Source of the DNA: an uncultured candidatus Porisulfidus sp.
GTDB taxonomy: Bacteria > Pseudomonadota > Gammaproteobacteria > Poriferisulfidales > Oxydemutatoraceae
Assembly: GCA_963693105.1 (NCBI GenBank)
Contig: OY843752.1
Span: forward strand, 613,789-677,788
Length of the DNA: 64,000 bases
Direction of reading: 5' to 3'
Shown here: positions 1,465-35,893 of the stretch, in pieces
Position numbering within the stretch: the stretch's first letter is position 1
How the letters are laid out: each line of letters starts with the position of its first letter
Notes under the pieces: generated by a model
Databases searched by the model: none
What the model saw: only the letters and a program-made list of their open reading frames with translations
What the model was told of the DNA's origin: nothing
Made by a program: the position numbers and the translations under genes

Positions 1465-2991
1465 ATGAAGACCATGACGAGTGTTTTGCAGGAATCGGGC
1501 GCGCGGTTTGCGCGCAAGTCGCGCGCGCGCGCCTTCGGGCGGCCGGTTTTCGGCGCTCGCTCGTACCGCCGCATCCTCGCCGCTTTTGCGGCGCTGGTCG
1601 CGGCGTTGGCCGCGTTGCTGGCGGCGCAATGGAATCCCGGCGGTTACTTTCCCGCCGCCGCGGCTGCGCTGCTGTGGCTGCCGGTCGCCGTCTGTCTGGC
1701 GGCGACGGCCTGGTATCTGCGGCTGGACCTGGTCCAGCCGTCGCGTCATCTGCACACATGGCTGCAGCGGGTGCACGCCGGCGATCTGGCGGCGCGGCTG
1801 CCGAATCTGGGCGACAGCAGTTTTGCCGGCTTGTGTGACGATCTCAACACGTTCTGTACGATGCTTGAAACCCAGTCGCGCGGCGCCGAGAGCCAGCTGC
1901 AAAGACACGCCGGGCACCTGACCGAGAAAACGCGCTCGCTGGCGCTGCTCTACCGCTTCGCCGCCAGCCTCAACATGGCGCACAATCTGGACGAATTGCT
2001 TGAGCAGGTGCTGACGGGGCTGGAGGATATTTACGGCATCGGCGCCGTCGCCGTCCGTCTGCGCCTCGAGAACGGCGGCATGCAATTGCTGGCGAGTTCC
2101 GGCCTGCCGCCGGACAGTCCGCAGTTGAGCAAGTGCCTGGACGGCGACAGCGAATGGCTGCAAACGTCGGAGGCCGACCGCCGGCTGGCGGTGCCGATGA
2201 AATATCACGGCGAGACGCTCGGCGTGTGCATACTCAACCTCGACCCGGAAATTTTCGCCAACCGTTCGCAATTGAAGGAACTCTTCGCCAGTCTCAGCCG
2301 CCACCTGGGCATGGCCATCGAGAAGATGCGTCTCGACCGGGAGCGGCAGCGCCTGTCCATCGTCGAGGAGCGCACCTACCTTGCCCACGAACTGCACGAT
2401 TCACTGGCGCAGACGATTGCCGGTCTGCGTTTTCAGACCGGGGCGCTGGTCCAGACGCTGGGCGGCGGCGGCGGCAATGTCCGGCAGGTGCTGGAGCAGA
2501 TGGAGAATTCGATTGACGAGGCCAACCTCCAGGTGCGCGAATTGGTGCGCCATTTTCGCGCGCCGGTGGAGAAGGGCAGCCTGCTTCAGTCGGTGCGCGG
2601 GGTCGTCGAGCACTTTCGCCGCGACAATCCCGGCATCGAGGTGTTCTTCCAGGAAGAGTGGCCGGGCGTCGTGCTGCCGGATCCGTATGAACTGAATATT
2701 CTGAGAATCGTGCAGGAGGCGCTGATCAACGCGCACAAGCACAGCCGCGCCGATTTCGTGCGCATCCTGATGAGAGGGCGCGACGGGCGTTACCGCGTGC
2801 TGATCGAGGACAACGGTGTCGGCGTCGCCGACGCCGGGCCGTCGGAAGAACGGATCGGCGACGGGCATTTCGGCCTGGATGTCATGCGCGACCGGGCGCG
2901 GCGCATCGGCGGCGAACTGGACGTTGACAGCGCACCGGGGGAAGGCGTGCGCGTCGCGATGACTTTCAATTATCCGGGAGGCGCCGGGTAA
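1465..2991 (+). CDS. two-component sensor histidine kinase (2 TM, HAMP, GAF-like, HisKA_3 H-box ELHDSLAQ, HATPase_c)
   Basis: H-box ELHDSLAQTIAGL and C-terminal N/G-box motifs (…EALINAHKHS…GDGHFGLDVMRDRA…) typical of NarX/UhpB-class kinases. Confidence 0.8.
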   Translation: MKTMTSVLQESGARFARKSRARAFGRPVFGARSYRRILAAFAALVAALAALLAAQWNPGGYFPAAAAALLWLPVAVCLAATAWYLRLDLVQPSRHLHTWLQRVHAGDLAARLPNLGDSSFAGLCDDLNTFCTMLETQSRGAESQLQRHAGHLTEKTRSLALLYRFAASLNMAHNLDELLEQVLTGLEDIYGIGAVAVRLRLENGGMQLLASSGLPPDSPQLSKCLDGDSEWLQTSEADRRLAVPMKYHGETLGVCILNLDPEIFANRSQLKELFASLSRHLGMAIEKMRLDRERQRLSIVEERTYLAHELHDSLAQTIAGLRFQTGALVQTLGGGGGNVRQVLEQMENSIDEANLQVRELVRHFRAPVEKGSLLQSVRGVVEHFRRDNPGIEVFFQEEWPGVVLPDPYELNILRIVQEALINAHKHSRADFVRILMRGRDGRYRVLIEDNGVGVADAGPSEERIGDGHFGLDVMRDRARRIGGELDVDSAPGEGVRVAMTFNYPGGAG

Positions 2992-3644
2992 TGCCCGATT
3001 TGTCCGTTGTCATCATAGACGACCACAAACTGTTCAGGGACGGCCTCGAAGCGTTGCTGACCAGGCGCGGCATCCAGGTGGCGGCGTCGCTGGGCGAAGG
3101 CCTGCGCGGTGTCGAACTGGCGCAGAAGGCGCAGCCCGATGTGGTGCTGCTGGACGTGCGCATGCCCGACGTGGACGGCATTGAAATACTGGAGATGCTG
3201 AAAGAGCAGGGGTTCGCCAACTCCGTTGTCATGCTGACCACCAGCGAAGACTGCGCCGATCTGGCCGGCGCGATGATACGCGGCGCCAAAGGTTATCTGA
3301 TGAAGGACATCGCGCCCGACGACCTGGTGGCCGCTTTGCACAGCGTGGTGGAAGGTGAGACCGTCATTGCGCCGTCGTTGCGGGAGGAATACGAGAAACT
3401 CGATCTGAGCAAACCGCCGCCGTCGCGCTGCGGCAAACTGGTCGGCAAACTGACTCCGCGCGAGCGCGAGGTGCTGGCGCTGCTGGTCGAGGGACAGAGC
3501 AACAAGATGATCGCCAAAGTCCTTAAAATTTCCGATGGCACCGTCAAACTGCACGTCAACACCATTCTCAGGAAATTCGGCGTGCACTCGCGTGTCGAAG
3601 CCGCGATGATCGAGGTCGAACGCAATATCCACAAAGGGCGCTGA
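2991..3644 (+). CDS. NarL/FixJ-family response regulator (REC + LuxR-type HTH)
   Basis: IIDDHKLFRDGL…DVVLLDVRMPDVDG receiver domain; C-terminal LTPREREVLALLVEGQSNKMIAKVL LuxR HTH; start overlaps kinase stop. Confidence 0.85.
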   Translation: MPDLSVVIIDDHKLFRDGLEALLTRRGIQVAASLGEGLRGVELAQKAQPDVVLLDVRMPDVDGIEILEMLKEQGFANSVVMLTTSEDCADLAGAMIRGAKGYLMKDIAPDDLVAALHSVVEGETVIAPSLREEYEKLDLSKPPPSRCGKLVGKLTPREREVLALLVEGQSNKMIAKVLKISDGTVKLHVNTILRKFGVHSRVEAAMIEVERNIHKGR

Positions 3645-3669
3645 GCCGCTCTCTCCGGCACACCATTCG

Positions 3670-4647
3670 ATGAAACGCCGTGTCAAAATCAACTTCAAGG
3701 GGTTCTGGGACTTAAGCCTGGAAGAGAATCCTTTCTACAAACTGCTGTCGAAGCGGTTTGATCTGGAGATTTCCGACGACCCGGATTTTTTGCTTTATAC
3801 CGACTGCTATCTCGAAAAAAAGAAACACCAGAATTGCGTCCGCATCTTCTACACGGGCGAGAACACAAGGCCTGATTTTTATGATTGTGATTACGCCTTC
3901 AGCTTTGATTTGCCGGTGACTGAAAGACACTACCGCCTGCCGCTGTACTGGCTCTATGCCGACTACAACAGGCTGAAAGAGCCGAAAGACCCGGACAGGA
4001 TTCTGGCGCAGAAAAGCGGATTCTGCAGTTTTTTATATTCCCATGCGACTCCTGAAAGGGAGGACTTTTTCAAACAGATGTTGTCCTACAAGATGATAGA
4101 TTCCGGCGGCAGGTTCCTTAATACGCTGGGTTATACGGTGCCCGTCGGGAGGGCGTCGGAAGCGGATTTTATACGGCGGTATAAATTCGCCATCGCTTTT
4201 GAGAATTCCTCCCACCCGGGTTACACGACGGAAAAGATTGTAAGCGCAATGCTTGCCAATACGGTGCCCATCTACTGGGGCAATCCGCAGGTGGCGCGCG
4301 ACTTCAACCCCAAATCGTTCATCAACTGCCATGATTACGACAACTTCAGCCAGGTCATCGAGAAGGTCATCGAAATAGACAATGACGACGATTTATACAA
4401 GTCCTTCCTTTCACAACCCTGGTTGAACGGCAACCGCGGCCTGGATAGTCTGACGGAAGAAAGCCTGTTGGCCCGGTTTGAGAAGATTTTTTCCGGGCCG
4501 GGAATCATACGATACCGGAAATCTCCCCGGTTGCCCGCTCTTCCCTTGTCGGTACGCGTCAACCGGATGATTCACGACAAGCTGATGCCCTACCGGTTTT
4601 TCGCCCCCATTATTCTGAGGCTGATCCGGTGGAAGAATCGCTGGTAG
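3670..4647 (+). CDS. glycosyltransferase family 10 (alpha-1,3-fucosyltransferase-like)
   Basis: motif YKFAIAFENS matches the GT10 signature YKF(Y/x)LAFENS; overall length and architecture FutA-like; gene looks markedly AT-richer than its neighbours (by eye). Confidence 0.6.
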   Translation: MKRRVKINFKGFWDLSLEENPFYKLLSKRFDLEISDDPDFLLYTDCYLEKKKHQNCVRIFYTGENTRPDFYDCDYAFSFDLPVTERHYRLPLYWLYADYNRLKEPKDPDRILAQKSGFCSFLYSHATPEREDFFKQMLSYKMIDSGGRFLNTLGYTVPVGRASEADFIRRYKFAIAFENSSHPGYTTEKIVSAMLANTVPIYWGNPQVARDFNPKSFINCHDYDNFSQVIEKVIEIDNDDDLYKSFLSQPWLNGNRGLDSLTEESLLARFEKIFSGPGIIRYRKSPRLPALPLSVRVNRMIHDKLMPYRFFAPIILRLIRWKNRW

Positions 4648-4654: not shown

Positions 4655-5023
4655 TCACTGGCCGCGTCCGCCGACATAGTGTTTGCGGTGGTGGCTGCGG
4701 GTGCCGGCCCGCTGCACGACAACGCCCTTGATGATGCCTGTGCCGGCAATCGCGATGCTTTCATAGCCGGGGTTCAGCGGCTTCAGCACGGGCTGGCCGT
4801 TTTCGACGATGAATTGCCTGAAGATGTATTCGCCGCCGGTTTCGGCGATGACGTACGAGCCGTTCTCAAAAGCGCCGCCGGGTTCGATGACGATGATGGA
4901 GCCGTCCGGGAATTCGGGCGCCATGCTGTCGCCCAGCACGCGCAGCGCGAAGGGCTCGCTGGCGGCGCAACCGGCGTCGTCGAGGCGTTCAATCTCCTTG
5001 TCGCTCACGCGAACAGCACCCAT
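4655..5023 (-). CDS. stand-alone S24 (LexA/UmuD-like) peptidase domain protein
   Basis: motif LGDSMAPEF…GSIIVIEP…, the LexA/UmuD C-terminal catalytic Ser region; no N-terminal DNA-binding domain. Confidence 0.6.
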   Translation of the reverse strand: MGAVRVSDKEIERLDDAGCAASEPFALRVLGDSMAPEFPDGSIIVIEPGGAFENGSYVIAETGGEYIFRQFIVENGQPVLKPLNPGYESIAIAGTGIIKGVVVQRAGTRSHHRKHYVGGRGQ

Positions 5024-5616
5024 GTCGTGGCGATGTATTTGACGCCTTGCAGCGGTTGCACGCCCCTGTGCTCGTGCGTCCAGAACGGCGGAAACAGCAG
5101 CAGTTTTCCCCGTTGCGGCCGGATGCTCACGTTCTGAACGAAAAATTCGGTCTCGCCGCCTTCCTCGATGTCGTTCAAATACCAGATTGCGACCAACTGC
5201 CTGTCGCTGAAACTGTGGCTGCCGCCGTCCACGTGCCAGTGGTAGAACTCGCCTTCGCGGGTTCGTTGTATGCCGTAACCCATGTCCCTGAAGCGCCCCT
5301 TGAAGTACGGAAACGCCTCGCGGAATTCATGCAGCGCCTGCTCCAGCGAGCGGAACAGGCTTTTGTCCACATCCTGCCAGTGCGGTTTGCCGCTGATGTA
5401 GAGGTCGGTCGAGCGCTTGATGGAGGCGTCCTCCTGCCGGGTCTGGCCGATGCGCCCCGGATACTGCTCTTCGGGCGCCTCCTCGAAACGCCGGATGATG
5501 TCGTCGCAGACGTCATCCGCCAGCGCCGCGGGTTTTTCGAACAAAAAGGTGTTGGGTTTGACCTCGTGGAGGGTCTTGAGCGGCGCGTGCAGCCTGTTTT
5601 CCGCGGCTGGAATCAC
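5005..5616 (-). CDS. 2OG-Fe(II) oxygenase superfamily protein (prolyl-4-hydroxylase-like)
   Basis: HWHVDGG … WTHEHRG resemble the HxD…H iron-binding facial triad and RxS 2OG site. Confidence 0.6.
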   Translation of the reverse strand: MIPAAENRLHAPLKTLHEVKPNTFLFEKPAALADDVCDDIIRRFEEAPEEQYPGRIGQTRQEDASIKRSTDLYISGKPHWQDVDKSLFRSLEQALHEFREAFPYFKGRFRDMGYGIQRTREGEFYHWHVDGGSHSFSDRQLVAIWYLNDIEEGGETEFFVQNVSIRPQRGKLLLFPPFWTHEHRGVQPLQGVKYIATTWVLFA

Positions 5617-6668
5617 AACGCCGCCTTTTCGCAGAGCGCTTCAATGCCGGGCGCGGCGTCGGCGCCGTGGCGTTCGAAGACTTCGAGCAGGCGGTTGGCG
5701 GTACGTTGCCAGTGCCGACGCGCCGGCGTCACCAGTTTTTCAATGGTCTCCAGGCTGTCGCTGCGCCGCCAGTCCTGATAGGCGTCGGTCAGCGCCGGGA
5801 ACATCTCCTTGCGCATCGCGCCGAGGTTGGCGACGTGAAAGTGCAGCGACGGAATCCTGCGTTCGCCGACCAGCGTCGGCAATACCGCGATGGAATCGGC
5901 AAGGTTGTCCTTGACCGCGCGCGCCATCATCTCGGCCCTGGAGCGCGGCAGCCGCGCGAGCATTTCGTACCATTTTTTGCCGAGCAGCCGGCCGGCCTCG
6001 ATTTCGCCGATTTCGTGCAGCGTGATGGTCTCGATTTCGTTTTCGGTCATCTGCTCCAGCGCCCGCTCCAGGTCGCCGTCGAAGTCGTAACACGACAGCG
6101 CGGTTCCCATCGTGTTGGGCGCGCGGTTCCAGCGCCATTCGTTGAGCCTCTCCCAGATCATTCTCTTGATGGATTCGCGCCGCACGAAAATCGTGTTGCC
6201 GAGAGACATCGCCGGTGGCGAGGCCAGGTCTCTCGCGCACTCGTCGGACGACACCAGCACCTCCAGCCCGCGCCGCTTTTTTTTCGACTCCAGCCTGCCC
6301 ATGAAAAAGTGGGGGGCGCCGCCGATGCCGAAGCCGCCCGAGTAAACGTAACCGCGCGGGTTCATCCAGCGGTTGATCGCGCCGGTCTCGAAGGGGTCGA
6401 ATTCGCGCCCGTCGGCGCACAGTGGCCGGTAAGGGCGCTGCTCCATGCTTTCCCACCAGGCCTCGCGTTCGCTCAGCCACTCGCCGAGGTCGTCTTTCGG
6501 CAGCAGATCGTCAAAGCCGTAGCCCTTCTCCCAGCGGTAGTATTCACGCATCTTGAGCAGATAAACGCACATCGTGTAATTGCAGGCGTGGCGGGCGTCG
6601 GATAAACCGCAGTTGTACTGCACCGTCTCGCACAGAGTGTCGGATTCGCGGTCGTGCGTCTCATTCAT
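5613..6668 (-). CDS. conserved hypothetical protein (351 aa), start overlaps the stop of the downstream oxygenase gene
   Basis: long uninterrupted ORF in operon-like arrangement (4-nt overlap with next gene); no recognised domain. Confidence 0.4.
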   Translation of the reverse strand: MNETHDRESDTLCETVQYNCGLSDARHACNYTMCVYLLKMREYYRWEKGYGFDDLLPKDDLGEWLSEREAWWESMEQRPYRPLCADGREFDPFETGAINRWMNPRGYVYSGGFGIGGAPHFFMGRLESKKKRRGLEVLVSSDECARDLASPPAMSLGNTIFVRRESIKRMIWERLNEWRWNRAPNTMGTALSCYDFDGDLERALEQMTENEIETITLHEIGEIEAGRLLGKKWYEMLARLPRSRAEMMARAVKDNLADSIAVLPTLVGERRIPSLHFHVANLGAMRKEMFPALTDAYQDWRRSDSLETIEKLVTPARRHWQRTANRLLEVFERHGADAAPGIEALCEKAAL

Positions 6669-7502: not shown

Positions 7503-8636
7503 TCAGGCGAGGGCCGCCTGAAAACGTTTCCATGCCTCGCCGTTGTCCAACTGCGCGGCGATGGCGTCGGCGGCGTTTTTCATCGAGGTGTGGCGCTGCA
7601 GGTGGGTCAGCACGATGGCGCCGCTGTAAATCAGGCAGTCGCGCGCCGCCCCCGGCTTGCCCTGCAAGGCGTCCATGCCGGCGTCGGCGGCGCTTTGCGA
7701 CAGCGCCCCGATGTCAACATCGGCGGCGATTGCATCGCCTTCCGCCGCCGCCGGCGGCAAATCGTCGGGCAGCGGCACACCGCGCGATGTCTGCCGGATT
7801 CCGATTGCGAGCGGGTCGAGTTCGCGCATCCGCTCTTCGCCCTCGCCGTGGTATTCGTGCAGTCTTGCCGGTTGCTTCAGCGACGGCGTGATGCCGCCTT
7901 CGCTGCCGCGCACGACGGCGGCGGAATCGAAACCGGCGAATTTCGCCAGGTCGAGATAAATCGGCGGATAGGCTTTGTGTACGTAGCCGGTAACCAGGTG
8001 TGTGCTGCGGCGCCCGCGTATCGGGCCGGTGAGCACCTCGACGGTCGTCAGCAGCGGGCGCTTGACAATCCGGGTGCGCAGCGATGTCAGGTCGTGCAGC
8101 GCCGGGCAGAAGCGGCTCTGATCCACGTAAGCCCAGCCGATGTCTTTCAGTTGCGCCGCCGCCTGTTGCGCCGACAGTCTGACATCCGCGCCGGCGGCGC
8201 GCAGAACCGTATGGTGGGTGGCGCCGTATTTCGGGCCGACGCACTCAAGGCCGTGGCAGAACGCGGCCACGTCGCAGGCCGCCAGCAGCGCCGGCAGAAA
8301 AGGCGCGACCGGCAGGCTGCGCAGGAAGCCGTCGTAGGGGTCGGCGATGTCCACCACCTGTTCAACGGGCGCGGTGACCGTGTCCGTCGTTTCACGAATC
8401 GCCTGCAGTACGCCCCGGTTTTCCTCGCGGGTCTCGCGCTTCATTCGAAGCGCAATCAGGAAAACCGCGGTCTGCACCGGGTCCGCTCCATTCTCCAGTA
8501 TCGACTCCATCGCCGCGCGGGCTTCCTCGAACGCAAGGTCCTTGCTGTATTCCGGGCCGGTCGCGACTTTCTGGATACAGTGGCGCAGAATCAGGCGCCC
8601 GGCGCGGCTTTCTTCAATCTCCATTCTGTTTGCCAT
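7503..8636 (-). CDS. anthranilate phosphoribosyltransferase (TrpD/glycosyl transferase family 3) paralogue
   Basis: 377 aa with TrpD-like architecture (N-terminal helical domain, …GTGGD-like region degenerate); not in a trp operon context. Confidence 0.55.
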   Translation of the reverse strand: MANRMEIEESRAGRLILRHCIQKVATGPEYSKDLAFEEARAAMESILENGADPVQTAVFLIALRMKRETREENRGVLQAIRETTDTVTAPVEQVVDIADPYDGFLRSLPVAPFLPALLAACDVAAFCHGLECVGPKYGATHHTVLRAAGADVRLSAQQAAAQLKDIGWAYVDQSRFCPALHDLTSLRTRIVKRPLLTTVEVLTGPIRGRRSTHLVTGYVHKAYPPIYLDLAKFAGFDSAAVVRGSEGGITPSLKQPARLHEYHGEGEERMRELDPLAIGIRQTSRGVPLPDDLPPAAAEGDAIAADVDIGALSQSAADAGMDALQGKPGAARDCLIYSGAIVLTHLQRHTSMKNAADAIAAQLDNGEAWKRFQAALA

Positions 8637-9414: not shown

Positions 9415-9893
9415 CGGCCCCTTTTTTTGCGGCTTCCCGCTTCATAGGCAATCTGCCGTGCCAGTTCCATAAACAACTCCCGGATGACCGGCGACTTGAT
9501 TCTCCTGAACGTCCGGAGCAAATCCTCGGTGAGGAGGTTCTCAAGCTGGAGGGCGGAGACGGTACGCGGTTCGTAGTTCTCCTCCGGTTCCGTCACAACG
9601 GTGATATCCGGTTGCAACTCCCGTCGCTGCAAGCCGGCGAAGAACCACTGCAACGGCGTGTTCGTCGAAAACGCAATCAGAAAGAGCTGCGAAGCACGGA
9701 TGTTGTTGACGCCGTTCTCAAAATAGGAAATCTGCTGGCCGCCGACCCCGAGAATCCGGCCAAAATCGGCAAGCGCTTTTCCATGGTAGCTGCGCAGACA
9801 CTTGATTTGCTGCCCGATGTGGTGGTTGACCTTGCGCTGAACCGCGGAATTGGCCGGCTTCTTATATTTGTTTTTTTTGATTGTGATAGACAA
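9411..9893 (-). CDS. XRE-family HTH transcriptional regulator (probable TTG start; N-terminus uncertain)
   Basis: IGQQIKCLRSYHGKALADFGRILGVGGQQISYFENGVNNIRASQLFLIAFSTNTPLQW is a classic Cro/C1 HTH; no in-frame ATG upstream of the domain, so a TTG at 9891-9893 is the first plausible start. Confidence 0.45.
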   Translation of the reverse strand: MSITIKKNKYKKPANSAVQRKVNHHIGQQIKCLRSYHGKALADFGRILGVGGQQISYFENGVNNIRASQLFLIAFSTNTPLQWFFAGLQRRELQPDITVVTEPEENYEPRTVSALQLENLLTEDLLRTFRRIKSPVIRELFMELARQIAYEAGSRKKRGR

Positions 9894-12033
9894 TGTCGTC
9901 CTCCTTTTTTTGTTTGAGTAGTTGTTTTTTCTTGTGGTAAAGATGGTCCGCGAAAGACGCGGCCAGACCGGTGCGCCGCAGCAGCGGTATCGCCGGACGG
10001 GCGAAAGGCAGCAACGGCAACAACGCCCACGAACCATTGCGCGGCGAAGCCCGCCAGGCCAGCGATCTTTTGAAGCATTCGCCGGCTTCGCTGAAGCGTT
10101 CCAGCGCAATCATCTGCAGGCCCGCCAGGCGCCACAAGTCTCCCATCACCCGGCGGCGGATTTTTTTCGGAATGTGTCTGCGCGCACCGAACCGCTCAAG
10201 ACAGTCCTCGCGGATATGCGCCCATCTTTGCAGGTAGTCGTCGTACCTGCGGTGGAGGCGCTCGACGGCGTCTCCGTCGGTGAAGGTGACCGTGCATCGC
10301 GGCACATACAGCCATTCGCCGAGATGGGCGAGGCGCGTGAAAAGTTCGCTGTCGTGGCCGGTTGGCAGGGTTTCGTTGAAGCCGCCGAGTTCCCTGACGA
10401 AGCCGGCGCGAAACAACGTGCATGAAGCGATGCCGGCGCCTTCGGTGAAAAACCATTGCCACGGGTTTTCGGGCAGTTCGCTCTGGTCTATGAATTCCTC
10501 CGCCTGTCGCACGCCATCGGGCGCTGCAAGCGCGTAGCGTATCAGGCGGTCGGTGCTGGCCGCCACCGCGCGCGGCGCGGCGGCGAGCGCGGCGGAGGTT
10601 TTTTCGAGAAAAGACGGCGGCGGGGAATCATCGGAGTCGAGAAAATAAACCAATTCGCAGTCACCGGCTTGTGAGAAGCCATGGTTTCTCGCGGCTGCCG
10701 CTCCCCGGTTGAAGTCGTGCACCAGCAGCCGCGTCTCGAAGGGGCGCTCCGTTTGTTGCCGCCACCGGCGGACTTCTTCGGGCGTGCCGTCGTCTGAGCC
10801 ATCGTCCACGACGACGACCCGGTGAGGCGGTTGCGTCTGGGCGCCGATCCGGTCGAGCACCCGCCGAATCAGGCCGGCGCGGTTGAAGACGGGGACAATG
10901 ACGGCGATTTTCATGCGATCATCGGAGTGCGGTTGAGTCCGGCGGGCGCTTTTTTCCGCCGTTTGCCGCGGCAGTTCATCATTACGCTGTATCGCGGAAT
11001 CGGGCGTCGGCAATTTTTCGGTTTTTTGTTTGAGCAGCCGCTTTTTCTTGTGGCTGAAATGGTCCGCAAAAGTCGCGACCAGGCCGGTGCGCCGCAGCAG
11101 CGGCATGGCCGGGCGGGCCAGAGGCAGCAGTGCCAGCAGCGCCCACGAGCGGTTGCGCGGCGAGGTCCGCCAGGCCAGCGACCTTCTGAAACATTCGCCG
11201 GCCTCGCCGAAACGCTCCAGCGCAATCATCTGCAGGCCCGCCAGACACCAGGAATGTCCCATGATTTTGCAGCGGAGTTTTTTCGGGACATGCGCGCGTG
11301 CGCCGAAATGTTCAAGGCAGTCCTCGCGGACGCGGGCCCAGTCCCGCAGGTAGGCGTCGTGTCCGTGGTAGAGGTGCTTGTCGGCGTCTCCGCCGGTCAT
11401 GGTCACCGTGCATTGCGGCACATGCAGCCATTCGCCGAGATGGGCGAGGCGCGTGAAAAGTTCGCTGTCGTCGCAGGTCGGCAACGTCTCGTTGAAGCCG
11501 CCGAGTTCCCTGACGAAGCCGGCGCGAAACAACGTGCATGAAGCGATGCCGGCGCCTTCGGTGAAAAACCATTGCCACGGGTTTTCGGGCAGTTCGCTCT
11601 GGTCTATGAATTCCTCCGCCTGTCGCACGCCATCGGGCGCTGCAAGCGCGTAGCGTATCAGGCGGTCGGTGCTGGCCGCCACCGCGCGCGGCGCGGCGGC
11701 GAGCGCGGCGGAGGTTTTTTCGAGAAAAGACGGCGGCGGGCAATCATCGGAGTCGAGAAAATAAACCAATTCGCAGTCATCGGCTTGCGAAAGGCCGTGG
11801 TTCCTCGCGGCCGGCGGCCCCCGGTTGAAGTCGTGCACCAGCAGCTGCGTCTCGAAAGGGCGCTTTGTTTGTTGCCGCCACCGGCGGACTTCTTCGGGCG
11901 TACCGTCGTCTGAGCCATCGTCCACGACGACGACCCGGTGGGGCGGTTGCGTCTGGGCGCCGACATGGTCGAGCACCCGGTGAATCAGACCGGCGCGGTT
12001 GAAAACGGGGATAATGATGGCGATTTCTGGCAT
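9862..12033 (-). CDS. fused tandem-duplicated family 2 glycosyltransferase (two near-identical GT2 modules in one 723-aa ORF)
   Basis: both halves start M(P/K)IA(I/V)I(I/V)PVFNRAGLI…VVVVDDGSDDGT…LDSDD; the second module begins at Met encoded at 10915-10913 after a short linker; no stop between the modules. Confidence 0.7.
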   Translation of the reverse strand: MPEIAIIIPVFNRAGLIHRVLDHVGAQTQPPHRVVVVDDGSDDGTPEEVRRWRQQTKRPFETQLLVHDFNRGPPAARNHGLSQADDCELVYFLDSDDCPPPSFLEKTSAALAAAPRAVAASTDRLIRYALAAPDGVRQAEEFIDQSELPENPWQWFFTEGAGIASCTLFRAGFVRELGGFNETLPTCDDSELFTRLAHLGEWLHVPQCTVTMTGGDADKHLYHGHDAYLRDWARVREDCLEHFGARAHVPKKLRCKIMGHSWCLAGLQMIALERFGEAGECFRRSLAWRTSPRNRSWALLALLPLARPAMPLLRRTGLVATFADHFSHKKKRLLKQKTEKLPTPDSAIQRNDELPRQTAEKSARRTQPHSDDRMKIAVIVPVFNRAGLIRRVLDRIGAQTQPPHRVVVVDDGSDDGTPEEVRRWRQQTERPFETRLLVHDFNRGAAAARNHGFSQAGDCELVYFLDSDDSPPPSFLEKTSAALAAAPRAVAASTDRLIRYALAAPDGVRQAEEFIDQSELPENPWQWFFTEGAGIASCTLFRAGFVRELGGFNETLPTGHDSELFTRLAHLGEWLYVPRCTVTFTDGDAVERLHRRYDDYLQRWAHIREDCLERFGARRHIPKKIRRRVMGDLWRLAGLQMIALERFSEAGECFKRSLAWRASPRNGSWALLPLLPFARPAIPLLRRTGLAASFADHLYHKKKQLLKQKKEDDIVYHNQKKQI
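9862..12033. repeat. direct tandem duplication, about 1.1 kb per unit (about 9862-10915 and 10916-12033)
   Basis: the two GT2 modules are about 85-90% identical at protein level (by eye); six-frame shadow ORFs repeat with the same period. Confidence 0.7.
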
Positions 12034-23698: not shown

Positions 23699-24424
23699 TT
23701 ATGGCATATCCCTGAAACGATAGTCTTCCATGCTTTTGCCATGCCAGTCAGCCAGGTTGTCGTAATTGATAAATTGGACTCGCTTCTTTATCTCTGCGTA
23801 CTCAGTACGCGATATTTTTTCGTCAAATTGCCGCTTTCTGACTTGGCTGGCAGCAATATAAAATTTTGTGTTGAAGTCCTGTAACGCAATATATTTGGAC
23901 AATGCCCCAGTGAAATCAGTTGAGTGCTCAACCTCAAAGGCGGCATACGGCATCCTGCGCTCCTTGTGGAACCAGATAACATCTATCATTCGGGCCCGCC
24001 TCACTGTTTCTTCATAACTGAACTGATAAATATCCTGCAAATCCCGCACTTTCCCCAAAGTGGCGCCAAGAAAATCTTTGTTTTTATCCTGGTTGGGCAC
24101 AAATGTTTTGTAGCCTTGGGCCTTTCCAATTTGAAGTAACAGTCCCTGATAGAAAGAGTGGTCTCGTTCCTCTATCTTTTTAGCGGGCTGATTTTCATCT
24201 GTCCAATGGACAAGTTTTTCCCGGCAAGCGTTCAACCCCCACAATCCCGGCTTTATTCTGAAAAAATATCTTTGGTTCTGAACAATGCGGCGAATAGATG
24301 CATAAGGCGTCTTTGTTTTCCAGTTGCTGACATCCACTTCTTTGTTCAGCCGTCCTAATGTGGCAACGCCACCCAGTCTTTCCATCACTTGAATAACCTG
24401 ATCGTGCTGATTCATAATTATCAA
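23699..24424 (-). CDS. hypothetical protein with Mrr_N-like winged-helix N-terminus (…RIKPGLWGL) and a C-terminal region with a PD-(D/E)xK-like motif (IDVIWF…AFEVEH)
   Basis: located in an AT-rich island, 4-nt overlap with the upstream mrr-like gene; domain assignment is by motif resemblance only. Confidence 0.4.
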   Translation of the reverse strand: MIIMNQHDQVIQVMERLGGVATLGRLNKEVDVSNWKTKTPYASIRRIVQNQRYFFRIKPGLWGLNACREKLVHWTDENQPAKKIEERDHSFYQGLLLQIGKAQGYKTFVPNQDKNKDFLGATLGKVRDLQDIYQFSYEETVRRARMIDVIWFHKERRMPYAAFEVEHSTDFTGALSKYIALQDFNTKFYIAASQVRKRQFDEKISRTEYAEIKKRVQFINYDNLADWHGKSMEDYRFRDMP

Positions 24425-25353
24425 TCCCCTTTTGGCATGGTATCGAGGAAAGCCACTAGTTTGATGGGCAGCAACCGCCGGCGTTTCTCAGGGATTTTTT
24501 CGTAATGCGCGACCCAGAGATCAAAGAAGCGTTTGGCGTCGATCAACACAAGATAGCGTTGTCCCCGGCGCGCTTCTTTATCAGCCTCTCTCGTGAATCC
24601 GCCGATAGAGACATAAAGACCTGTTTCCCGGTCTTTCAGAGTGTCCCGGAAGGAACGAATTGCATCAACGCTAAGCGCATCTTGCCTCCGTTTCACTTGA
24701 ACCTTGATGCGTTTTCCAGAGACACCAAGCGAATCGGTAGTGGCGTGAATGTCAATACCTCCATCCGGTCCGGGAGGCGCAACCCACTGCACGTGATGTC
24801 CCATCCCTTCAAGAAGGCCGGCTACTACCTCCTGAAAATCGAGCGGTTTCATTTCAGCCAGATAGTTCTCGACTTCCGCCCAGGCGTTTTCTTCAGATTC
24901 TTCTAGTGTTGCCGACGATGTTTCCGTGCCGTCTTGCTCAGGGTCACCGTCGGCGTTGTTTCCTTTCGGCGGCTGATCCTTTTTCCATTGTTTAAATCCC
25001 TCTATCGATTTTTTATGGAATTGCTCCGGGTCAGGGGTGCATTTATAGGCTTCTTTCCCTGCGTCCGTGAGAGACCACTGGCCACGTTCCTTGATTAGCC
25101 AGCCAGCCTTTGTGTAACTAATCGTTGCGAATCGGACCACCACTTCATAGCGACGAGTGCCGGGACGATTTGGGAAATCCCTTTTTTCAAAGGATGTCGG
25201 GGGAACCTCTGTTGCTAAAAGAGCGAGGACTTTTCTGGAAGGAAGGCCCTCCGGCTCATCGTGCAAAATCTTGAAAACACCCCGGACCAGTGTTCCGTTG
25301 CGCTCATGCGTGACTTCAGCCATCTTAATTCTCCTGTTTTTCGGTTGTTCCAA
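24421..25353 (-). CDS. mrr: Mrr-family type IV restriction endonuclease (Mrr_N winged helix + Mrr_cat)
   Basis: C-terminal …GPDGGIDIHATTDSLGVSGKRIKVQVKRR… matches the Mrr catalytic motif (GDGGIDG…QCKR); N-terminal …YTKAGWLIKERGQWSLTDAG is Mrr_N-like; alternative start at 25323 (MAEVTHE…). Confidence 0.75.
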   Translation of the reverse strand: MEQPKNRRIKMAEVTHERNGTLVRGVFKILHDEPEGLPSRKVLALLATEVPPTSFEKRDFPNRPGTRRYEVVVRFATISYTKAGWLIKERGQWSLTDAGKEAYKCTPDPEQFHKKSIEGFKQWKKDQPPKGNNADGDPEQDGTETSSATLEESEENAWAEVENYLAEMKPLDFQEVVAGLLEGMGHHVQWVAPPGPDGGIDIHATTDSLGVSGKRIKVQVKRRQDALSVDAIRSFRDTLKDRETGLYVSIGGFTREADKEARRGQRYLVLIDAKRFFDLWVAHYEKIPEKRRRLLPIKLVAFLDTMPKGD

Positions 25354-25935: not shown

Positions 25936-27209
25936 TCAAACAAACGCCGCGCTCGCGGCGGTCAGCGTGTCGGCGATGTCGTCTTCCGAGTGTGCGGCGG
26001 ACACGAAGCCGGCCTCGAAGGCGGACGGCGCAAGATAAATCCCCTGCTCCAGCATCCGCCCGAAGAAACGCCCGAACTTTTCCGTGTCGCATTGCCGGAC
26101 CTGCGCGAACGAAGTCACCGGCGAATCCTTTGTAAAGAACAATCCGAACATCGCGCCGAGGCCGTCGCAGTAAAACGGCACGCCCGCCTTCGCCGCGCCT
26201 TCGCCCAGCCCTTCGACGAGCCGTTTTGTTTTGTCGGCAATCGAGTCGAACATGCCGGGTTGCAGCAACAACTCCAGGGTTTTCAGGCCCGCCGCCATCG
26301 CAATCGGGTTGCCGGACAGGGTGCCGGCCTGGTACACCGGGCCTTCGGGCGCCAGCTGGTCCATGATGTCGGCGCGCCCGCCAAAGGCGCCGACCGGCAG
26401 GCCGCCGCCGATGACCTTGCCAAGCGTCGTCAGGTCCGGCGTAATCCGGTACACCGCCTGCGCGCCGCCGGGCGCGACGCGAAAGCCGCTCATGACCTCG
26501 TCAAAAATCAGCAGCGCGCCGTGCGTGTGGCAACACTCGCGCAAGGTTTTCAGAAAATCCCGATCCCCCGGCACGAAGTTCATGTTGCCCGCCACCGGCT
26601 CGACGATTGCGCAAGCGATTTCCGCGCCCGCCTGTTCGAAAACCTCGCGCACCTGCGCCGCGTCGTTGTAGCGCAGCACCATCGTCTGCCGGCGAACGCC
26701 GCGGGCACGCCGGCGGAGTCCGGCACGCCCAGCGTCAGCGCACCCGACCCGGCGCCGACCAGCAGCGCGTCGGCGTGGCCGTGATAGCAGCCGTCGAACT
26801 TGATAATGCGGTCGCGGCCGGTGAAGCCGCGCGCCAGGCGGATGGCGCTCATCGTCGCTTCGGTGCCGGAGTTGACCAGGCGCAGTTTGCCGATGGAGGG
26901 CATCGCCTCGCGTATTTTCTCCGCCAGCAGAATCTCGGCCTCGGTCGGCGCGCCGAAGCTGAGCCCTTTCGCCGCCGCCTGGCGCACCGCGTCCACCACT
27001 TCCGGGTGAGCGTGGCCGAGTATCATCGGCCCCCACGAGCCGACGTAATCAATGTAGCGCCGCCCGTCCGCATCCAACAGGTGGGCGCCGGCGGCGCTGT
27101 CAATAAACAGCGGCTCGCCGCCAACCGCCTTGAAAGCCCTGACCGGCGAATGGACGCCGCCGGGTGTCGAAAGACACGCCCGTTTGTAGAGTTTCCGTGA
27201 AATGCTCAT
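25936..27209 (-). CDS. hemL: glutamate-1-semialdehyde 2,1-aminomutase, interrupted by a single-nucleotide frameshift near 26686-26693 (two ORFs 26580-27209 and 25936-27036)
   Basis: N-terminal ORF matches HemL to …[13 protein letters not shown] then leaves frame; the other frame continues …[19 protein letters not shown]… through the PLP-lysine region to the C-terminus. Confidence 0.8.
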
Positions 27210-27245
27210 CGGAACATCGCGGTTGATGCAGGCAGCAAGATTGAA

Positions 27246-27734
27246 CTACCCGGCTTCTTGTTCTTTGTTTTTTCTGCTACGTCTGTGACCACTAATGAGT
27301 TGGGCGGCGAGACCAACCAATGGTGCGGCAAGAAGCGCGATGCCTGCAACCGCGTAGCCTATGAAAGCCATGAAGGCGCCTCCTGAGATGACCATGCCGG
27401 AAATTAAGAGTGTGTACAGTTGTCCACGCTTTTCAAAATTGATGGCACTCTTGAGTGCGAGACTTTCCTTATCGTGTCTATGGTTTTGCTCTTTCTCAGC
27501 CATTGCCATAATCCTGTTTGGGAATTCCGCATCTATTTTTTGATAACCTTCCAACTGGGCAGCTGGAGGCAATGGTCCCGAAAAATAAGCAGAAGCGATG
27601 GTCACGGAGGATTCCCCTTCACTCCGGGCCAGTGCTTCTTTCAGGGCTGCCCGACGGTCGGCAGGGAGTTGGTCAATGAGTTCAGGAAGTGCATCAGGCT
27701 CCGAGAGGCCTGATTTTTCATTGTCTTCGGGCAC
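27246..27734 (-). CDS. DUF2335-like membrane protein
   Basis: …YFSGPLPPAAQLEGY…MAEKEQNHRH… followed by two TM helices; AT-rich gene. Confidence 0.45.
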   Translation of the reverse strand: MPEDNEKSGLSEPDALPELIDQLPADRRAALKEALARSEGESSVTIASAYFSGPLPPAAQLEGYQKIDAEFPNRIMAMAEKEQNHRHDKESLALKSAINFEKRGQLYTLLISGMVISGGAFMAFIGYAVAGIALLAAPLVGLAAQLISGHRRSRKNKEQEAG

Positions 27735-28101
27735 GCCTGTTCTCGATTGCTTGTGCTTCTTTCAGAAATGCCAGACAGAAATCTTCAAAGACATTCTGCC
27801 AGTCCGAGCGGATGGCTTTGTCTGGGTTGGATTCTATGCCGGCGTCTCGAAGATAGTCGTGTTGTGAGACTGGATGCATTAAACGGAAAGAGGACAGTAT
27901 TTCTGTGACAGAGGGCAATTGACTTCCATACCGCTGTCTTTTTGCCAGGAGGCGGTCGAGCTCTTTATTGTAGATTTCCAGCTTTTTGTTGGCATCATCT
28001 TCCGGGTCGGGGAATGAGAAGAGATCCAACTGTTTGTCCGATGCCGATTGAGCCACATGGCGGACAAGAAAATCCACAAGTTTGTCGGTGTTTTCTGTCA
28101 T
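27718..28101 (-). CDS. hypothetical protein (AT-rich; start taken at MTENTDK)
   Basis: ORF only, 16-nt overlap with downstream DUF2335 gene. Confidence 0.3.
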   Translation of the reverse strand: MTENTDKLVDFLVRHVAQSASDKQLDLFSFPDPEDDANKKLEIYNKELDRLLAKRQRYGSQLPSVTEILSSFRLMHPVSQHDYLRDAGIESNPDKAIRSDWQNVFEDFCLAFLKEAQAIENRRARRQ

Positions 28102-32263: not shown

Positions 32264-32872
32264 ATGGAAATTTATCTGCAACTGCTGATTCAGTCGGTTT
32301 TTGTCGAGAACCTGGCGCTCGCCTTTTTTCTCGGCATGTGCACTTTTCTCGCCATCTCGAAGAAGATCGAGAACGCGGTCGGGCTCGGTATTGCCGTCAC
32401 CGTCGTTCAGGCGCTGACGGTTCCCATCAACAACCTGATTTACCAGTTTCTGCTGAAGAAAGGCGCGCTGGCGTGGGCCGGTCTGGGCGCGATGGATTTG
32501 TCCTTTCTCGGCTTCATCAGTTACATCGGCGTCATCGCCGCGGTGGTGCAAATCCTCGAAATGCTGCTCGACCGGTTTTTTCCGGCGCTGTATAACGCGC
32601 TCGGTATTTTTCTGCCGCTGATTACGGTCAACTGCGCGATTCTCGGCGGTTCGCTGTTCATGGTCGAGCGCAACTACGATTTCGCCGAGAGCGTGGTCTA
32701 TGGTTTCGGCAGCGGTCTTGGCTGGGCCATTGCCATCCTGGCGCTTGCCGGAGTTCGCGAGAAACTCAAATACAGCGATGTTCCCGACGGACTTCAGGGG
32801 CTCGGCATCACGTTCATCACGGTCGGTTTGATGTCGCTCGGTTTCATGGCGTTTTCGGGGATTCTGTTCTGA
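32264..32872 (+). CDS. nqrE: Na+-NQR subunit E
   Basis: …[18 protein letters not shown]… NqrE/RnfA family. Confidence 0.9.
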
Positions 32873-32912
32873 GACATCCGGCGCCCGGGCGGCTCAGAAA
32901 CATTTGTCATAC

Positions 32913-32942
32913 TTGAATCAGGACGACGACATTGGCTATAAT
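32913..32942 (+). promoter_or_regulatory. candidate sigma70 promoter (TTGAAT-18-TATAAT) for divergent precursor gene 0
   Basis: TTGAAT at 32913-32918 and perfect TATAAT at 32937-32942, about 45 nt upstream of the ATG at 32989. Confidence 0.4.
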
Positions 32943-32988
32943 GAGCGTCACTCGGGACATTGACCAACAACATGAAGAGGTTTTAATT

Positions 32989-33312
32989 ATGGCAAAACAA
33001 GAAGACAACACGGTAACACTGCCAAGGATGCCTGAGACGGCATCCGCGGATTTGGCTGCCCGTTACCTCAAGGACGAGGATTTCCGCGCCGAGTTCGACA
33101 AGGACCCGAAAGCGGCGATTTCAAAGGCCGCTGGCCGGGAAGTGCCGTCCGATATGGAAGTCAAGATTCATCGCAACGACGAAAAATGCTGGCACATCGC
33201 GCTTCCGTCAAAGGCGCGGATTGACGCGTTGGGTGAAGAGGACATTGATGGCATATCCGGAGGTGTTGACAGGCGTACACAACACTGGGGCCACGGCTTG
33301 TGCTTCGGTTAA
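32989..33312 (+). CDS. NHLP-leader precursor peptide 0 (divergent; leader …EEDIDGISGG, short core VDRRTQHWGHGLCFG)
   Basis: …ADLAARYLKDEDFRAEFDKDPKAAISKAAGREVPSDMEVKIHRNDEKCWHIALP… is homologous to the leaders of the four downstream precursors; start at Met preceded by GAAGAGG. Confidence 0.6.
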   Translation: MAKQEDNTVTLPRMPETASADLAARYLKDEDFRAEFDKDPKAAISKAAGREVPSDMEVKIHRNDEKCWHIALPSKARIDALGEEDIDGISGGVDRRTQHWGHGLCFG

Positions 33313-33388
33313 GGACAGACTGCGTCTGTCCCCGGAGGCCGGCGAAGGCGCTGACGCGCCCATAACCGCCGGGCGGTCGGAACCCAGA

Positions 33389-33426
33389 CCCGCGGTGCGG
33401 CCCATGGTCGCCCGCGGGTTTTTTTA
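33389..33426 (+). terminator. rho-independent terminator (CCCGCGG…CCGCGGG + T8)
   Basis: GC-rich inverted repeat followed by TTTTTTTT. Confidence 0.6.
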
Positions 33427-33460
33427 TCCGCGCCAACCCGTTCAGAAACCCTTGTCAGTA

Positions 33461-33488
33461 TTGACACAAATATCCAGCCTTGTATATT
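33461..33488 (+). promoter_or_regulatory. sigma70-type promoter TTGACA-16-TATATT of precursor 1
   Basis: consensus -35 and near-consensus -10, about 52 nt upstream of ATG; conserved in every cassette. Confidence 0.55.
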
Positions 33489-33540
33489 CTGCGGCCCTGG
33501 TGCAATTTCGCACAATAACAATTAAAAAAGGAAACCTGTT

Positions 33541-34053
33541 ATGGAAAAACAACAAACCAGCAAGTTGACGATGCCGGTGACGCCTGAGGCAATCTCTGCA
33601 ACGTTGGCCATTCTTTACGCCGAAGATGCGGATTTTCGCGCTGCATTTGACAAGGACCCGAAAGCGACGGTTGCCAAAGTTTCTGGCCAGGAAATCCCGT
33701 CCGATGTGGAAATCGTGGTTCATCGCAACGACCCCAAACGCTGGCATATCACGCTTCCGGTGGAAGGAATGGATGTCGCACAACTGGGGGACAAGGAGAT
33801 GGGGGACGTAGCCGGAGGCGTGTCTTTTTTCACTGGTGCGGGCATGATTGGGTGCATCACTGGCAATATAGTTGCTGCGTTGTGTCCTGGTGCTTGCTGC
33901 TCCCAGGAGCCGGCGTCGGGTACTTCCGCTCCTACTGAGGCCCAGCAGGCGTTTGCCGCCGACCCCTTAGGGCCAATCATTGGCGCGTTGAGCACGATGC
34001 GCGATGCGCTGAACAGGGCAGGTGTCACCGGCTCAAGCGGAAGCGGCGGCTGA
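33541..34053 (+). CDS. NHLP-leader precursor peptide 1 (leader to …MGDVAGG; 77-aa Gly/Ala-rich core with 4 Cys: …IGCITGNIVAALCPGACCSQ…; Gly/Ser tail)
   Basis: leader …ILYAEDADFRAAFDKDPKATVAKVSGQEIPSDVEIVVHRNDPKRWHITLPVEGMD… matches the nitrile-hydratase-like leader peptide family ending in a double-glycine. Confidence 0.8.
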   Translation: MEKQQTSKLTMPVTPEAISATLAILYAEDADFRAAFDKDPKATVAKVSGQEIPSDVEIVVHRNDPKRWHITLPVEGMDVAQLGDKEMGDVAGGVSFFTGAGMIGCITGNIVAALCPGACCSQEPASGTSAPTEAQQAFAADPLGPIIGALSTMRDALNRAGVTGSSGSGG

Positions 34054-34078
34054 TTCGACCGTTTCGGTCTGAACCCAA

Positions 34079-34117
34079 CCCGCGGTGCGGCCCCATGGCC
34101 GCCCGCGGGTTTTTTTA
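34079..34117 (+). terminator. rho-independent terminator (same hairpin + T8)
   Basis: CCCGCGGTGCGGCCCCATGGCCGCCCGCGGG followed by TTTTTTT. Confidence 0.6.
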
Positions 34118-34151
34118 TCCGCGCCAACCCGTTCAGAAACCTTTGTCAGTA

Positions 34152-35247
34152 TGCAAAAGCTCAGACACCTTTGGCACTCTGATCTGCGAGGAGAGCCATG
34201 CAAATCCATCGTGTCGGATACCGCATCAAGGGGTATTCACAAGTAGTCAAATTAGGGCATCTTTGGGATATGACGAGCAAAGATGCCCTGCAACGTATCA
34301 AAATCCTTGAGTTCGCCGAGCGGCACGGACAGGGCGCCGCTATCGATGCCTTTGAAGTCAGTTCGCGTACGCTGTATCGCTGGCGCCGCGCGCTCAAACT
34401 TCACAACAACCGCATCAGCGCACTTACCCCCAAATCATGCGCGCCGCACCGCAAACGGCCGCCGGCCACCGCGCCCGCCGTGGCCGCGCAAATACGCGCC
34501 ATGCGATTCCATAAACACCACCCCAATATGGGCAAAGCCACTATCCACGCCAGCGAGGAGTTCCGGCGCTGGTGCCGCGAGAACCGGGTGGCGCTGCCGA
34601 GTGTGTCCACCATCGGGCGCATCATCGCGCGTGCGCCGGATAAAATGCGCCACGCCCCGCTACGACTCGGCCCGCGCGGACAGCCCAAATCCGTGCGCCA
34701 GCAACACAAAACACGCCGCATCAAAGGTTATCAACCGGCCCCGCTGGAACTCATCGCTGGCGATACCATCGTCCGAATGCGCGATGGCATCCGCCGCTAC
34801 CTCACCACCTTCATCGACCCCAACAGCCGCTTTGCCGTCGCCTTCGCCTCGCGCACCGCTTCCAGCCGTCAAGCCACCCTTACCCTCAACGCCCTCATCG
34901 ACCTGCTGCCGGCAGCCCCCAAATACCTGCTCACCGACAACGGCTCCGAGTTCATGGGCGACTTCCAAAAACGACTCGATGAACTCCATATCACCCACTG
35001 GTGGACCTACCCCAACTCACCCAAAATGAACCCTCACGCCGAACGCTTCAACCGCACCATCCAGGAGAGTTTCGTCGACTACCACGACGACCTCCTGTTC
35101 TCCGACCTGACCCTCTTCAACCAAAAACTCGCCGAATGGCTGGTCTTCTACAACACCCAAAGACCACACCATTCCCTCAAACGCCAATCTCCCATACAAT
35201 ACCTCTCACAACAACTTCCATACTGCCAAAGGTATTGGACTTGTACA
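34152..35247 (+). mobile_element. insertion sequence, IS481-like (about 1.1 kb, imperfect terminal IRs TGCAAAAG…CCTTTGGCA / TGTACAAG…CCTTTGGCA, 5-bp direct repeat CAGTA)
   Basis: interrupts the otherwise conserved spacer …CCTTTGTCAGTA|TTGACACAAG… seen intact in the other cassettes; CAGTA present on both flanks (34147-34151 and 35248-35252). Confidence 0.75.
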
Positions 35248-35256
35248 CAGTATTGA
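34198..35256 (+). CDS. DDE (rve/integrase-core) transposase, IS481-family-like; stop codon lies in the flanking -35 hexamer
   Basis: 352 aa with N-terminal HTH (…SSRTLYRWRR…) and rve core (…LLTDNGSEF…NPHAERFNRTIQ…) ; ORF runs through the right IR and terminates at TGA formed by TSD+TTGACA. Confidence 0.85.
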   Translation: MQIHRVGYRIKGYSQVVKLGHLWDMTSKDALQRIKILEFAERHGQGAAIDAFEVSSRTLYRWRRALKLHNNRISALTPKSCAPHRKRPPATAPAVAAQIRAMRFHKHHPNMGKATIHASEEFRRWCRENRVALPSVSTIGRIIARAPDKMRHAPLRLGPRGQPKSVRQQHKTRRIKGYQPAPLELIAGDTIVRMRDGIRRYLTTFIDPNSRFAVAFASRTASSRQATLTLNALIDLLPAAPKYLLTDNGSEFMGDFQKRLDELHITHWWTYPNSPKMNPHAERFNRTIQESFVDYHDDLLFSDLTLFNQKLAEWLVFYNTQRPHHSLKRQSPIQYLSQQLPYCQRYWTCTQY

Positions 35257-35280
35257 CACAAGTATCCAGCCTTGTATATT
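35253..35280 (+). promoter_or_regulatory. sigma70-type promoter TTGACA-16-TATATT of precursor 2 (immediately abutting the IS right end)
   Basis: same conserved promoter as the other cassettes; upstream terminator/spacer replaced by the IS. Confidence 0.55.
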
Positions 35281-35332
35281 CTGCGGCCATGGTGCAATTT
35301 CGCACAATGACAATTGAAAAAGGATATCTATT

Positions 35333-35794: not shown

Positions 35795-35820
35795 TCCGAC
35801 CGTTTCGGTCTGAACCCAAA

Positions 35821-35858
35821 CCCGCGGTGCGGCCCCATGGCCGCCCGCGGGTTTTTTT
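35821..35858 (+). terminator. rho-independent terminator (same hairpin + T7)
   Basis: inverted repeat + T-run. Confidence 0.6.
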
Positions 35859-35893
35859 ATCCGCGCCAACCCGTTCAGAAACCTTTGTCAGTA

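Follow-up and report, generated by a model that had tools for sequence, protein, structure and literature searches.

The gene at positions 3670–4647 (+ strand) of a 64,000 nt stretch of DNA from an uncultured candidatus Porisulfidus sp. (contig OY843752.1; the whole stretch is referred to below as the window) encodes a predicted glycosyltransferase of family GT10. Taken together, the evidence makes it probable that this is a functional GDP-fucose transferase that decorates an envelope glycan, that the gene is inherited within its lineage, and that its low GC content is driven mainly by the amino acid composition of its product. The genome of the window is carried on a 1.83-Mb contig.

The open reading frame (ORF) is intact from ATG to TAG and specifies 325 aa plus the stop codon. 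Two Pfam domains match with scores that, as sequence comparisons, are far beyond chance. FucT_N (PF18025; 77.4 bits, cut-off 27.2, E 1.1e-21) matches along the whole profile (1–91) and covers residues 7–96, a predicted acceptor-side, Rossmann-like N-terminal domain that includes the sequence YTGEN (3688–3957, +). Glyco_transf_10 (PF00852; 75.1 bits, cut-off 23.9, E 7.3e-21), taken here as the Pfam model corresponding to CAZy GT10, covers residues 115–247, the C-terminal donor-binding domain, which is predicted to bind GDP-fucose (4012–4410, +). In a phmmer search of the PDB, the closest solved relative was the alpha1,3-fucosyltransferase of Helicobacter pylori (HpFucT; 2nzw, E 6e-39), followed by Arabidopsis FUT11, human FUT9 and mango FucT13. 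An AlphaFold2 (AF2) model of the protein was obtained with a pLDDT of 90 and a pTM of 0.82, and all 18 of its top Foldseek matches in the PDB were GT10 structures, the best being 2nzx_C (TM 0.72, E 2.5e-22), with 2nzw also among them. By sequence and by model, the product is a predicted GT-B-fold GT10 glycosyltransferase, and the family assignment of the earlier note, made from the sequence YKFAIAFENS (residues 171–180, nt 4180–4209), is upheld. Orthologous proteins are likewise labelled 'glycosyltransferase family 10' by NCBI.

All six catalytic or donor-binding residues are identical between the window protein and HpFucT in the phmmer alignment to 2nzw. Residue E64 (nt 3859–3861) lies opposite the HpFucT catalytic base Glu95, with YTGEN opposite YTGEN; R130 aligns with R195, and N179, Y185, E188 and K189 align with N240, Y246, E249 and K250. 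Residues R195, N240, Y246 and K250 of HpFucT are reportedly involved in donor binding. Among 50 homologues, E64 and R130 are invariant, as are K172, F173, F177, E178, G184, Y185 and K189, and N179 and E188 are at least 90% conserved. The alpha1,3-fucosyltransferase motif YKFAIAFENSSHPGYTTEK (residues 171–189; 4180–4236, +) was recognised from the alignment to HpFucT and from this conservation. For the H. pylori enzyme, Glu95 has been proposed as catalytic base, and an oxocarbenium-like intermediate is stabilised by Glu249; both are essential, and mutants of either are virtually inactive (PMC4202792).

The C-terminal tail (residues 276–325; 4495–4644, +) is basic, with 12 Lys and Arg residues against a single Asp or Glu. 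Helices are predicted at 293–305 and 312–324 in the AF2 model (pLDDT 65–73), the last of them strongly amphipathic (hydrophobic moment 0.70–0.72 over residues 311–325), and no hydrophobic stretch of transmembrane grade was found in the protein (maximum KD19 over the sequence, 0.77). In the alignment with HpFucT the tail lies opposite the C-terminal ...LLRAIRRWVKK; HpFucT itself is anchored by two amphipathic helices (PMC4202792). From the model, and by analogy with HpFucT, the tail probably acts as a peripheral membrane anchor.

The enzyme proposed here would be a peripheral inner-membrane GDP-fucose:glycan alpha-fucosyltransferase, held in place by its basic amphipathic C-terminal helices. 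It would take L-fucose from GDP-beta-L-fucose, with E64 acting as general base and R130, N179, Y185, E188 and K189 holding the donor, and in an inverting reaction would transfer the fucose to a sugar residue within an envelope glycan, forming an alpha bond that is most likely alpha1,3. Fucosylated surface glycans, which had been suggested in the earlier note, may reasonably be supposed.

The likeness to HpFucT (2NZW, 2NZX, 2NZY, 5ZOI; CAZy GT10) extends to both Pfam domains, the GT-B fold (TM 0.72), the catalytic Glu of YTGEN, the donor-binding Arg, the FEN...GY.TEK motif, the absence of a transmembrane segment, and the basic amphipathic C-terminus with its ...LR.IRRW... ending. However, the two proteins are only about 30–33% identical, and the HpFucT sequence used for alignment, which we take to be 458 aa long, exceeds the 325 aa of the window protein. 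A stretch of about 50 residues between the domains of HpFucT (about 127–177) is missing from the window protein, as are the DDLRVNY (DD/NLRV/INY) heptad repeats, which fall in a gap of the alignment, and the C-terminal segment that sets the choice between type 1 and type 2 acceptors in H. pylori has no counterpart. The fut genes of H. pylori carry poly-C tracts that undergo slipped-strand phase variation; the GT10 gene of the window has no run of six or more C or G, its longest homopolymers being A7 and T6. With about 30% identity to the H. pylori enzyme, and with the heptads, the inter-domain insertion and the phase-variable tracts all absent, the description of the gene as a Lewis-antigen-type fucosyltransferase is unproven. 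Uncharacterised GT10 proteins from environmental bacteria, which combine FucT_N and Glyco_transf_10 in about 300–340 aa and are also annotated by NCBI under glycosyltransferase family 10, share the architecture and length of the window protein at 43–77% identity. Eukaryotic members of the family (human FUT9, 8D0O; Arabidopsis FUT11, 9S6A; mango FucT13, 7YRO) share the C-terminal donor domain and the motif (E 4e-9 to 7e-6) and have the same fold (TM 0.54–0.63), but they are only 16–21% identical to it and are type II Golgi membrane proteins with different acceptor-side domains.

The low GC content of the gene, previously judged by eye against its neighbours, was confirmed on calculation. Its GC is 0.504 compared with 0.612 for the whole window (z = −2.5 against sliding windows of equal length), placing it among the three lowest of the 65 predicted ORFs. 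Most of the drop falls at the first and second codon positions (GC1 0.47, GC2 0.36); at the third, the gene has a GC3 of 0.684 where the local mean is 0.770 (sd 0.070; z = −1.2). About two thirds of the deficit comes from amino acid composition, because the protein re-encoded with the codon usage of the window still gives an expected GC of only 0.541; of the roughly 11 missing GC points, about 7 are due to amino acid composition and about 3.6 to codon choice. Phe, Tyr, Asn and Lys each occur in the protein at about twice their frequency in its neighbours, and Ala, Gly and Val at about half. The gene also has the second most atypical codon usage (log-likelihood) of 49 genes (z = −2.0). The idea that the low GC is a foreign signature is supported to that extent by codon usage, but it is weakened by the share of the deficit that lies in the amino acids and by a GC3 deviation of only 1.2 sd.

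Low GC relative to the flanks was found for GT10 genes at 22 of the 25 loci examined. The two orthologues described below have a total GC that is 8–10 points low (−0.08 to −0.10) and a GC3 (0.78–0.80) that matches their neighbours. GC1 and GC2 of the window gene and the orthologues (0.47–0.53 and 0.36–0.37) may be compared with those of GT10 genes from low-GC hosts (0.42–0.48 and 0.28–0.35) and from high-GC Planctomycetes (up to 0.66, and 0.44–0.47). In a genome of 61% GC, the low value is chiefly the result of a family sequence rich in F, Y, N, K, I and D, together with a mild deviation in codon usage. The composition fits either an old transfer that has largely ameliorated or weak expression of the gene.

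Orthologous loci were found in two other species-level gammaproteobacterial lineages, one represented by a metagenome-assembled genome that serves as species representative (L001; 74% protein identity) and the other by three loci (L024–L026; 77%, in the 27-member protein cluster P0002). The orthologues have the same length as the window protein, 325 aa, and MDD9807365.1 and other members of P0002 are named 'glycosyltransferase family 10 (domain-containing) protein' by NCBI. Gene order is shared, running from ferredoxin through gmk, an erpA-like gene, a HisKA_3 kinase, a NarL-type regulator and GT10 to a convergent S24 peptidase, and continuing with a 182-aa ORF, a TrpD-like gene, inositol monophosphatase, a GT2-GT2 fusion, iscR, iscS and iscU. 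Neighbouring proteins are 72–97% identical across the window and the orthologue loci, so the divergence of the GT10 protein (74–77%) is ordinary. Its dN/dS is 0.15–0.18 against the two orthologues, compared with 0.03–0.28 for the neighbours. Purifying selection acts on the gene, which was already present in the common ancestor of the three lineages.

The genes around GT10 are housekeeping or regulatory. No tRNA gene was found anywhere in the 64-kb window, no insertion sequence (IS) lies within 29 kb of the GT10 gene, and no integrase or repeat borders it. The identical synteny, the neighbour-like divergence and the lack of mobile hallmarks mean that a recent horizontal transfer is not supported. 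The gene is vertically inherited within a small-genome gammaproteobacterial lineage, and any horizontal acquisition was old; only an old transfer is plausible. Outside this lineage, the closest homologues with a named taxon (50–54% identity) come from Chloroflexia, Planctomycetota, Bacteroidota and Geomonas, and the GT10 proteins of other Gammaproteobacteria (Chromatiales, Oxydemutatoraceae) are only 37–38% identical.

Enzymes of this kind had been thought rare outside a few lineages, a view that the database searches contradict. A word-index protein search gave 4,645 matches, the best 120 of which were listed. When the representatives of 1.84 billion clusters at 50% identity were searched exhaustively with HMMER, 10,515 clusters matched at E ≤ 1e-3; the number was 3,814 at E ≤ 1e-10, and 1,171 clusters matched at E ≤ 1e-30. 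GT10 loci occur in at least ten phyla, the candidate phyla radiation (CPR) included, and members at 28–54% identity belong to Planctomycetota, Chloroflexota, Bacteroidota, Verrucomicrobiota, Bacillota, Acidobacteriota, Spirochaetota, CPR and several gammaproteobacterial orders. Literature on GT10 in sponge symbionts, or on characterised bacterial GT10 enzymes from outside Helicobacter, yielded nothing directly usable, and very few bacterial fucosyltransferases have been characterised (PMC8698959).

Upstream of GT10, on the same strand, are genes for guanylate kinase (gmk, 464–1096), an ErpA-like Fe-S assembly protein (1093–1437), a HisKA_3 sensor kinase (1465–2991) and a NarL-type response regulator (2991–3644), all assigned by Pfam; the NarQ/NarX-like and NarL-like NCBIfam matches of the last two are under cut-off. 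Successive junctions from gmk to GT10 are a 4-nt overlap, 27 nt, a 1-nt overlap and 25 nt. The spacer between regulator and GT10 (window, 25 nt; L024, 10 nt; L001, 32 nt) is not conserved in sequence. A scan for terminators and promoters found nothing in this spacer (3645–3669), and the three terminator-like matches within the GT10 ORF reflect the background frequency (11 found against 8.4 expected). The convergent gene for an S24 (LexA/UmuD-like) peptidase (4655–5023, −; PF00717), kept in L001 and L024, has its stop codon 7 nt from that of GT10 and marks the end of the transcription unit. GT10 is probably the last gene of a co-transcribed five-gene unit, gmk–erpA-like–kinase–regulator–GT10. 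The match of the kinase to the NarX/NarQ transmitter core (188 bits, under cut-off) starts at profile position 163, and the periplasmic nitrate-sensing part of the profile is unmatched. A tblastn search with the kinase and regulator gave no matches at 25 non-orthologous GT10 loci, and the two-component linkage is therefore specific to the lineage (window, L001 and L024–L026); its position directly 3′ of a NarL-type two-component system sets the gene of this lineage apart from those at the other 25 loci.

The downstream flank holds the S24 peptidase, a 2OG oxygenase, a DUF6866 protein, a TrpD-like protein, inositol monophosphatase and the isc genes. The 2OG-Fe(II) oxygenase (203 aa) and the DUF6866/Sfum_1244-family protein (351 aa; NCBIfam 445 bits) form a pair at 5005–6668 (−), of normal GC (0.61–0.63), that is missing from the otherwise perfectly syntenic L001 and L024–L026, a lineage-specific insertion 360 nt downstream of GT10. 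Elsewhere the window holds housekeeping genes: isc/hsc, tldD, a Mur ligase gene, nqr, a gene for a dinB-like polymerase and those of a complete type II secretion system.

No classical lipopolysaccharide (LPS) or capsule cluster adjoins GT10, nor does one occur in the 10 kb further upstream visible in L024. The statement that LPS and capsule genes are lacking around it is broadly true of the flanks, but it overlooks a GT2-GT2 fusion glycosyltransferase 5.2 kb downstream and a Wzy_C protein at 46433–48652. The fusion (9862–12033, −; 723 aa; PF00535 twice) is the only other sugar-polymer enzyme near GT10, and its synteny is kept in L001 and L024. Its two GT2 modules are about 80% identical as DNA over 300 nt, an internal tandem duplication that is fused in L001 and L024 as well, and all of its NCBIfam matches are far below cut-off. 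It is a possible partner of GT10. The gene at 46433–48652 (+) encodes 739 aa with a Wzy_C (O-antigen ligase/polymerase-like) membrane domain and C-terminal TPR repeats; it has a lower GC (0.55) and atypical codon usage, and immediately precedes the type II secretion cluster. The Glycos_transf_3 gene at 7503–8636 was considered as a glycan glycosyltransferase and rejected, as it encodes a TrpD/YbiB-type phosphoribosyltransferase-family protein. The closest homologues outside the lineage (L027–L029; 55–59% identity), two of them paralogues on one 2.38-Mb contig, are also solitary among housekeeping genes and about 7 GC points under their flanks, so isolation is typical of this GT10 subgroup. More distant homologues in other phyla adjoin GT2 genes (L002, L007, L009, L023).

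Several observations weigh against an active, vertically inherited envelope fucosyltransferase. The GC3 of the window copy is 10–12 points under that of the orthologues, where neighbouring genes differ by 0–5 points, and its dS (0.94–0.98) is about twice the median of the neighbours, with a low dN/dS; the copies compared were 3670–4647 of the window, L024:10001–10975 and L001:7302–8270. These two values are not wholly accounted for by uniform, purely vertical descent, and relaxed codon selection, local mutation bias or gene exchange among relatives could possibly underlie them. No obvious Shine-Dalgarno-like sequence is present 5′ of the GT10 ATG, and no NCBIfam family model matched the protein. 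None of the genes for GDP-fucose synthesis (gmd, fcl/wcaG, fkp) is among the annotated genes of the window, and no acceptor-building genes are demonstrably linked to GT10. With only about 30% identity to any characterised enzyme, linkage and acceptor are extrapolated, and GT10 reportedly also includes protein O-fucosyltransferases, FUT10 and FUT11 (PMC11949838). Part of this evidence could indicate a decaying or non-functional relic in a reduced genome, namely the low GC3, the doubled dS and the lack of a clear ribosome-binding site, but an ORF of the full 325 aa seen in the orthologues, intact catalytic residues throughout, a dN/dS of 0.15–0.18 and a confidently predicted fold make that exceedingly improbable. 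Very unlikely, too, is a recent form of the horizontal acquisition suggested in the earlier note, by which a new low-GC island gene would have given the cell a novel Lewis-like fucosylated surface. Its total GC and second-ranked atypical codon usage would suit such an event, as would a family tree that does not follow taxonomy, with relatives in other phyla closer than those in Gammaproteobacteria. This explanation is already largely refuted by synteny, since two further species-level lineages carry the gene in exactly this place, diverged as its neighbours are, and it is further opposed by a GC3 within 1.2 sd, by the two thirds of the deficit that are amino acid composition, by the low dN/dS, and by the lack of a tRNA gene in the window or of an IS, integrase or repeat at the gene borders.

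An ancient transfer, in which the ancestor of the lineage received the gene from a donor of lower GC and after which GC3 ameliorated and the constrained GC1 and GC2 did not, is quite possible, although we would stop a little short of calling it probable. It is compatible with the lineage-inherited fucosyltransferase favoured here, and partly included in it. The GC1 and GC2 of the window gene and its orthologues resemble those of GT10 genes from low-GC hosts, the GC3 of the orthologues is host-like, and the pattern of identities is at odds with taxonomy; however, the amino acid bias of the whole family could by itself yield low GC1 and GC2, and no donor can be named. A different role for the protein, whether protein fucosylation as by FUT10/11, the use of another GDP-sugar, or a small cytoplasmic or secreted acceptor, seems unlikely. 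Such a role would accord with the lack of a glycan cluster around the gene, here and in its closest relatives, with the inclusion of protein O-fucosyltransferases in the family, and with the small number of characterised bacterial fucosyltransferases. Nevertheless, the predicted membrane-anchor-like tail fits lipid-linked substrates, distant homologues adjoin GT2 genes, and, to our knowledge, the characterised bacterial GT10 enzymes all act on oligosaccharide acceptors. Lastly, the solitary GT10 might have been brought into a NarL-type two-component operon as its final gene, so that surface fucosylation would be switched by an envelope or environmental signal and serve host recognition or the evasion of host phagocytosis. 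This would be a regulated analogue of the Lewis mimicry of Helicobacter, with the AT-shifted synonymous sites and the doubled dS reflecting the evolution of a lineage-specific trait, and as a joint proposal it is a rather doubtful one. Judging from their sample names, the metagenomes that yielded the relatives may come from marine sponges.

Other features of the window lie apart from the GT10 gene. Between nqrE (32264–32872) and nqrF (37125–38387), region 32904–37190 holds five tandem copies of a unit of about 630–690 nt (61–98% identity). Five proteins of this array (126–170 aa; ORFs 32932–33312, 33541–34053, 35333–35794, 35974–36429 and 36608–37090, all +) match the NHLP (nitrile-hydratase-like leader peptide) RiPP precursor model TIGR03793 at E 1e-11 to 1e-12 (42–48 bits, just under the cut-off of 50.9). 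They have a conserved leader ending in ...IENIAGG, followed by variable Gly/Cys/Ser-rich cores, and the annotated ORFs of the window showed no modification enzyme for such precursors. Inside the array, and hence inside the nqr operon, lies an IS-type transposase ORF (34198–35256, +; rve integrase core plus HTH_32). An NHLP-like precursor array within a respiratory operon is odd, and is more unusual than the GT10 gene. The lowest-GC stretches of the window are at 23699–25353 (−) and about 27000–27750. The former includes a 241-aa ORF (GC 0.44, GC3 0.50) with no Pfam or NCBIfam match, adjoining an Mrr-type restriction endonuclease gene, and the second low-GC patch (about 0.49) is centred around 27200–27450; both are better candidates for recently acquired DNA than GT10. 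Near the end of the window, an ORF of 139 aa (63378–63797, +; GC 0.52) with no significant family match contains at least three tandem copies of a 33-nt unit (63482–63608; 84–93% identity) that encodes an 11-residue repeat.

The GT10 gene is one more uncharacterised member of a very large family, correctly named in the databases, and is only mildly unusual, in its lineage-conserved place behind a two-component system and in the AT shift at synonymous sites of the window copy. It serves as a caution that, when one gene of a high-GC genome falls short by about 10 GC points, the amino acid composition of its family can be the main cause, and that such a drop should therefore not be read as recent transfer without a check of GC3 and synteny. 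A compact GT10 enzyme of 325 aa that lacks the heptad region may be of interest to makers of fucosylated oligosaccharides. If the link to the two-component system is functional, the gene would offer a case in which signal control of surface fucosylation can be tested, in a bacterium that is uncultured and probably associated with a host.

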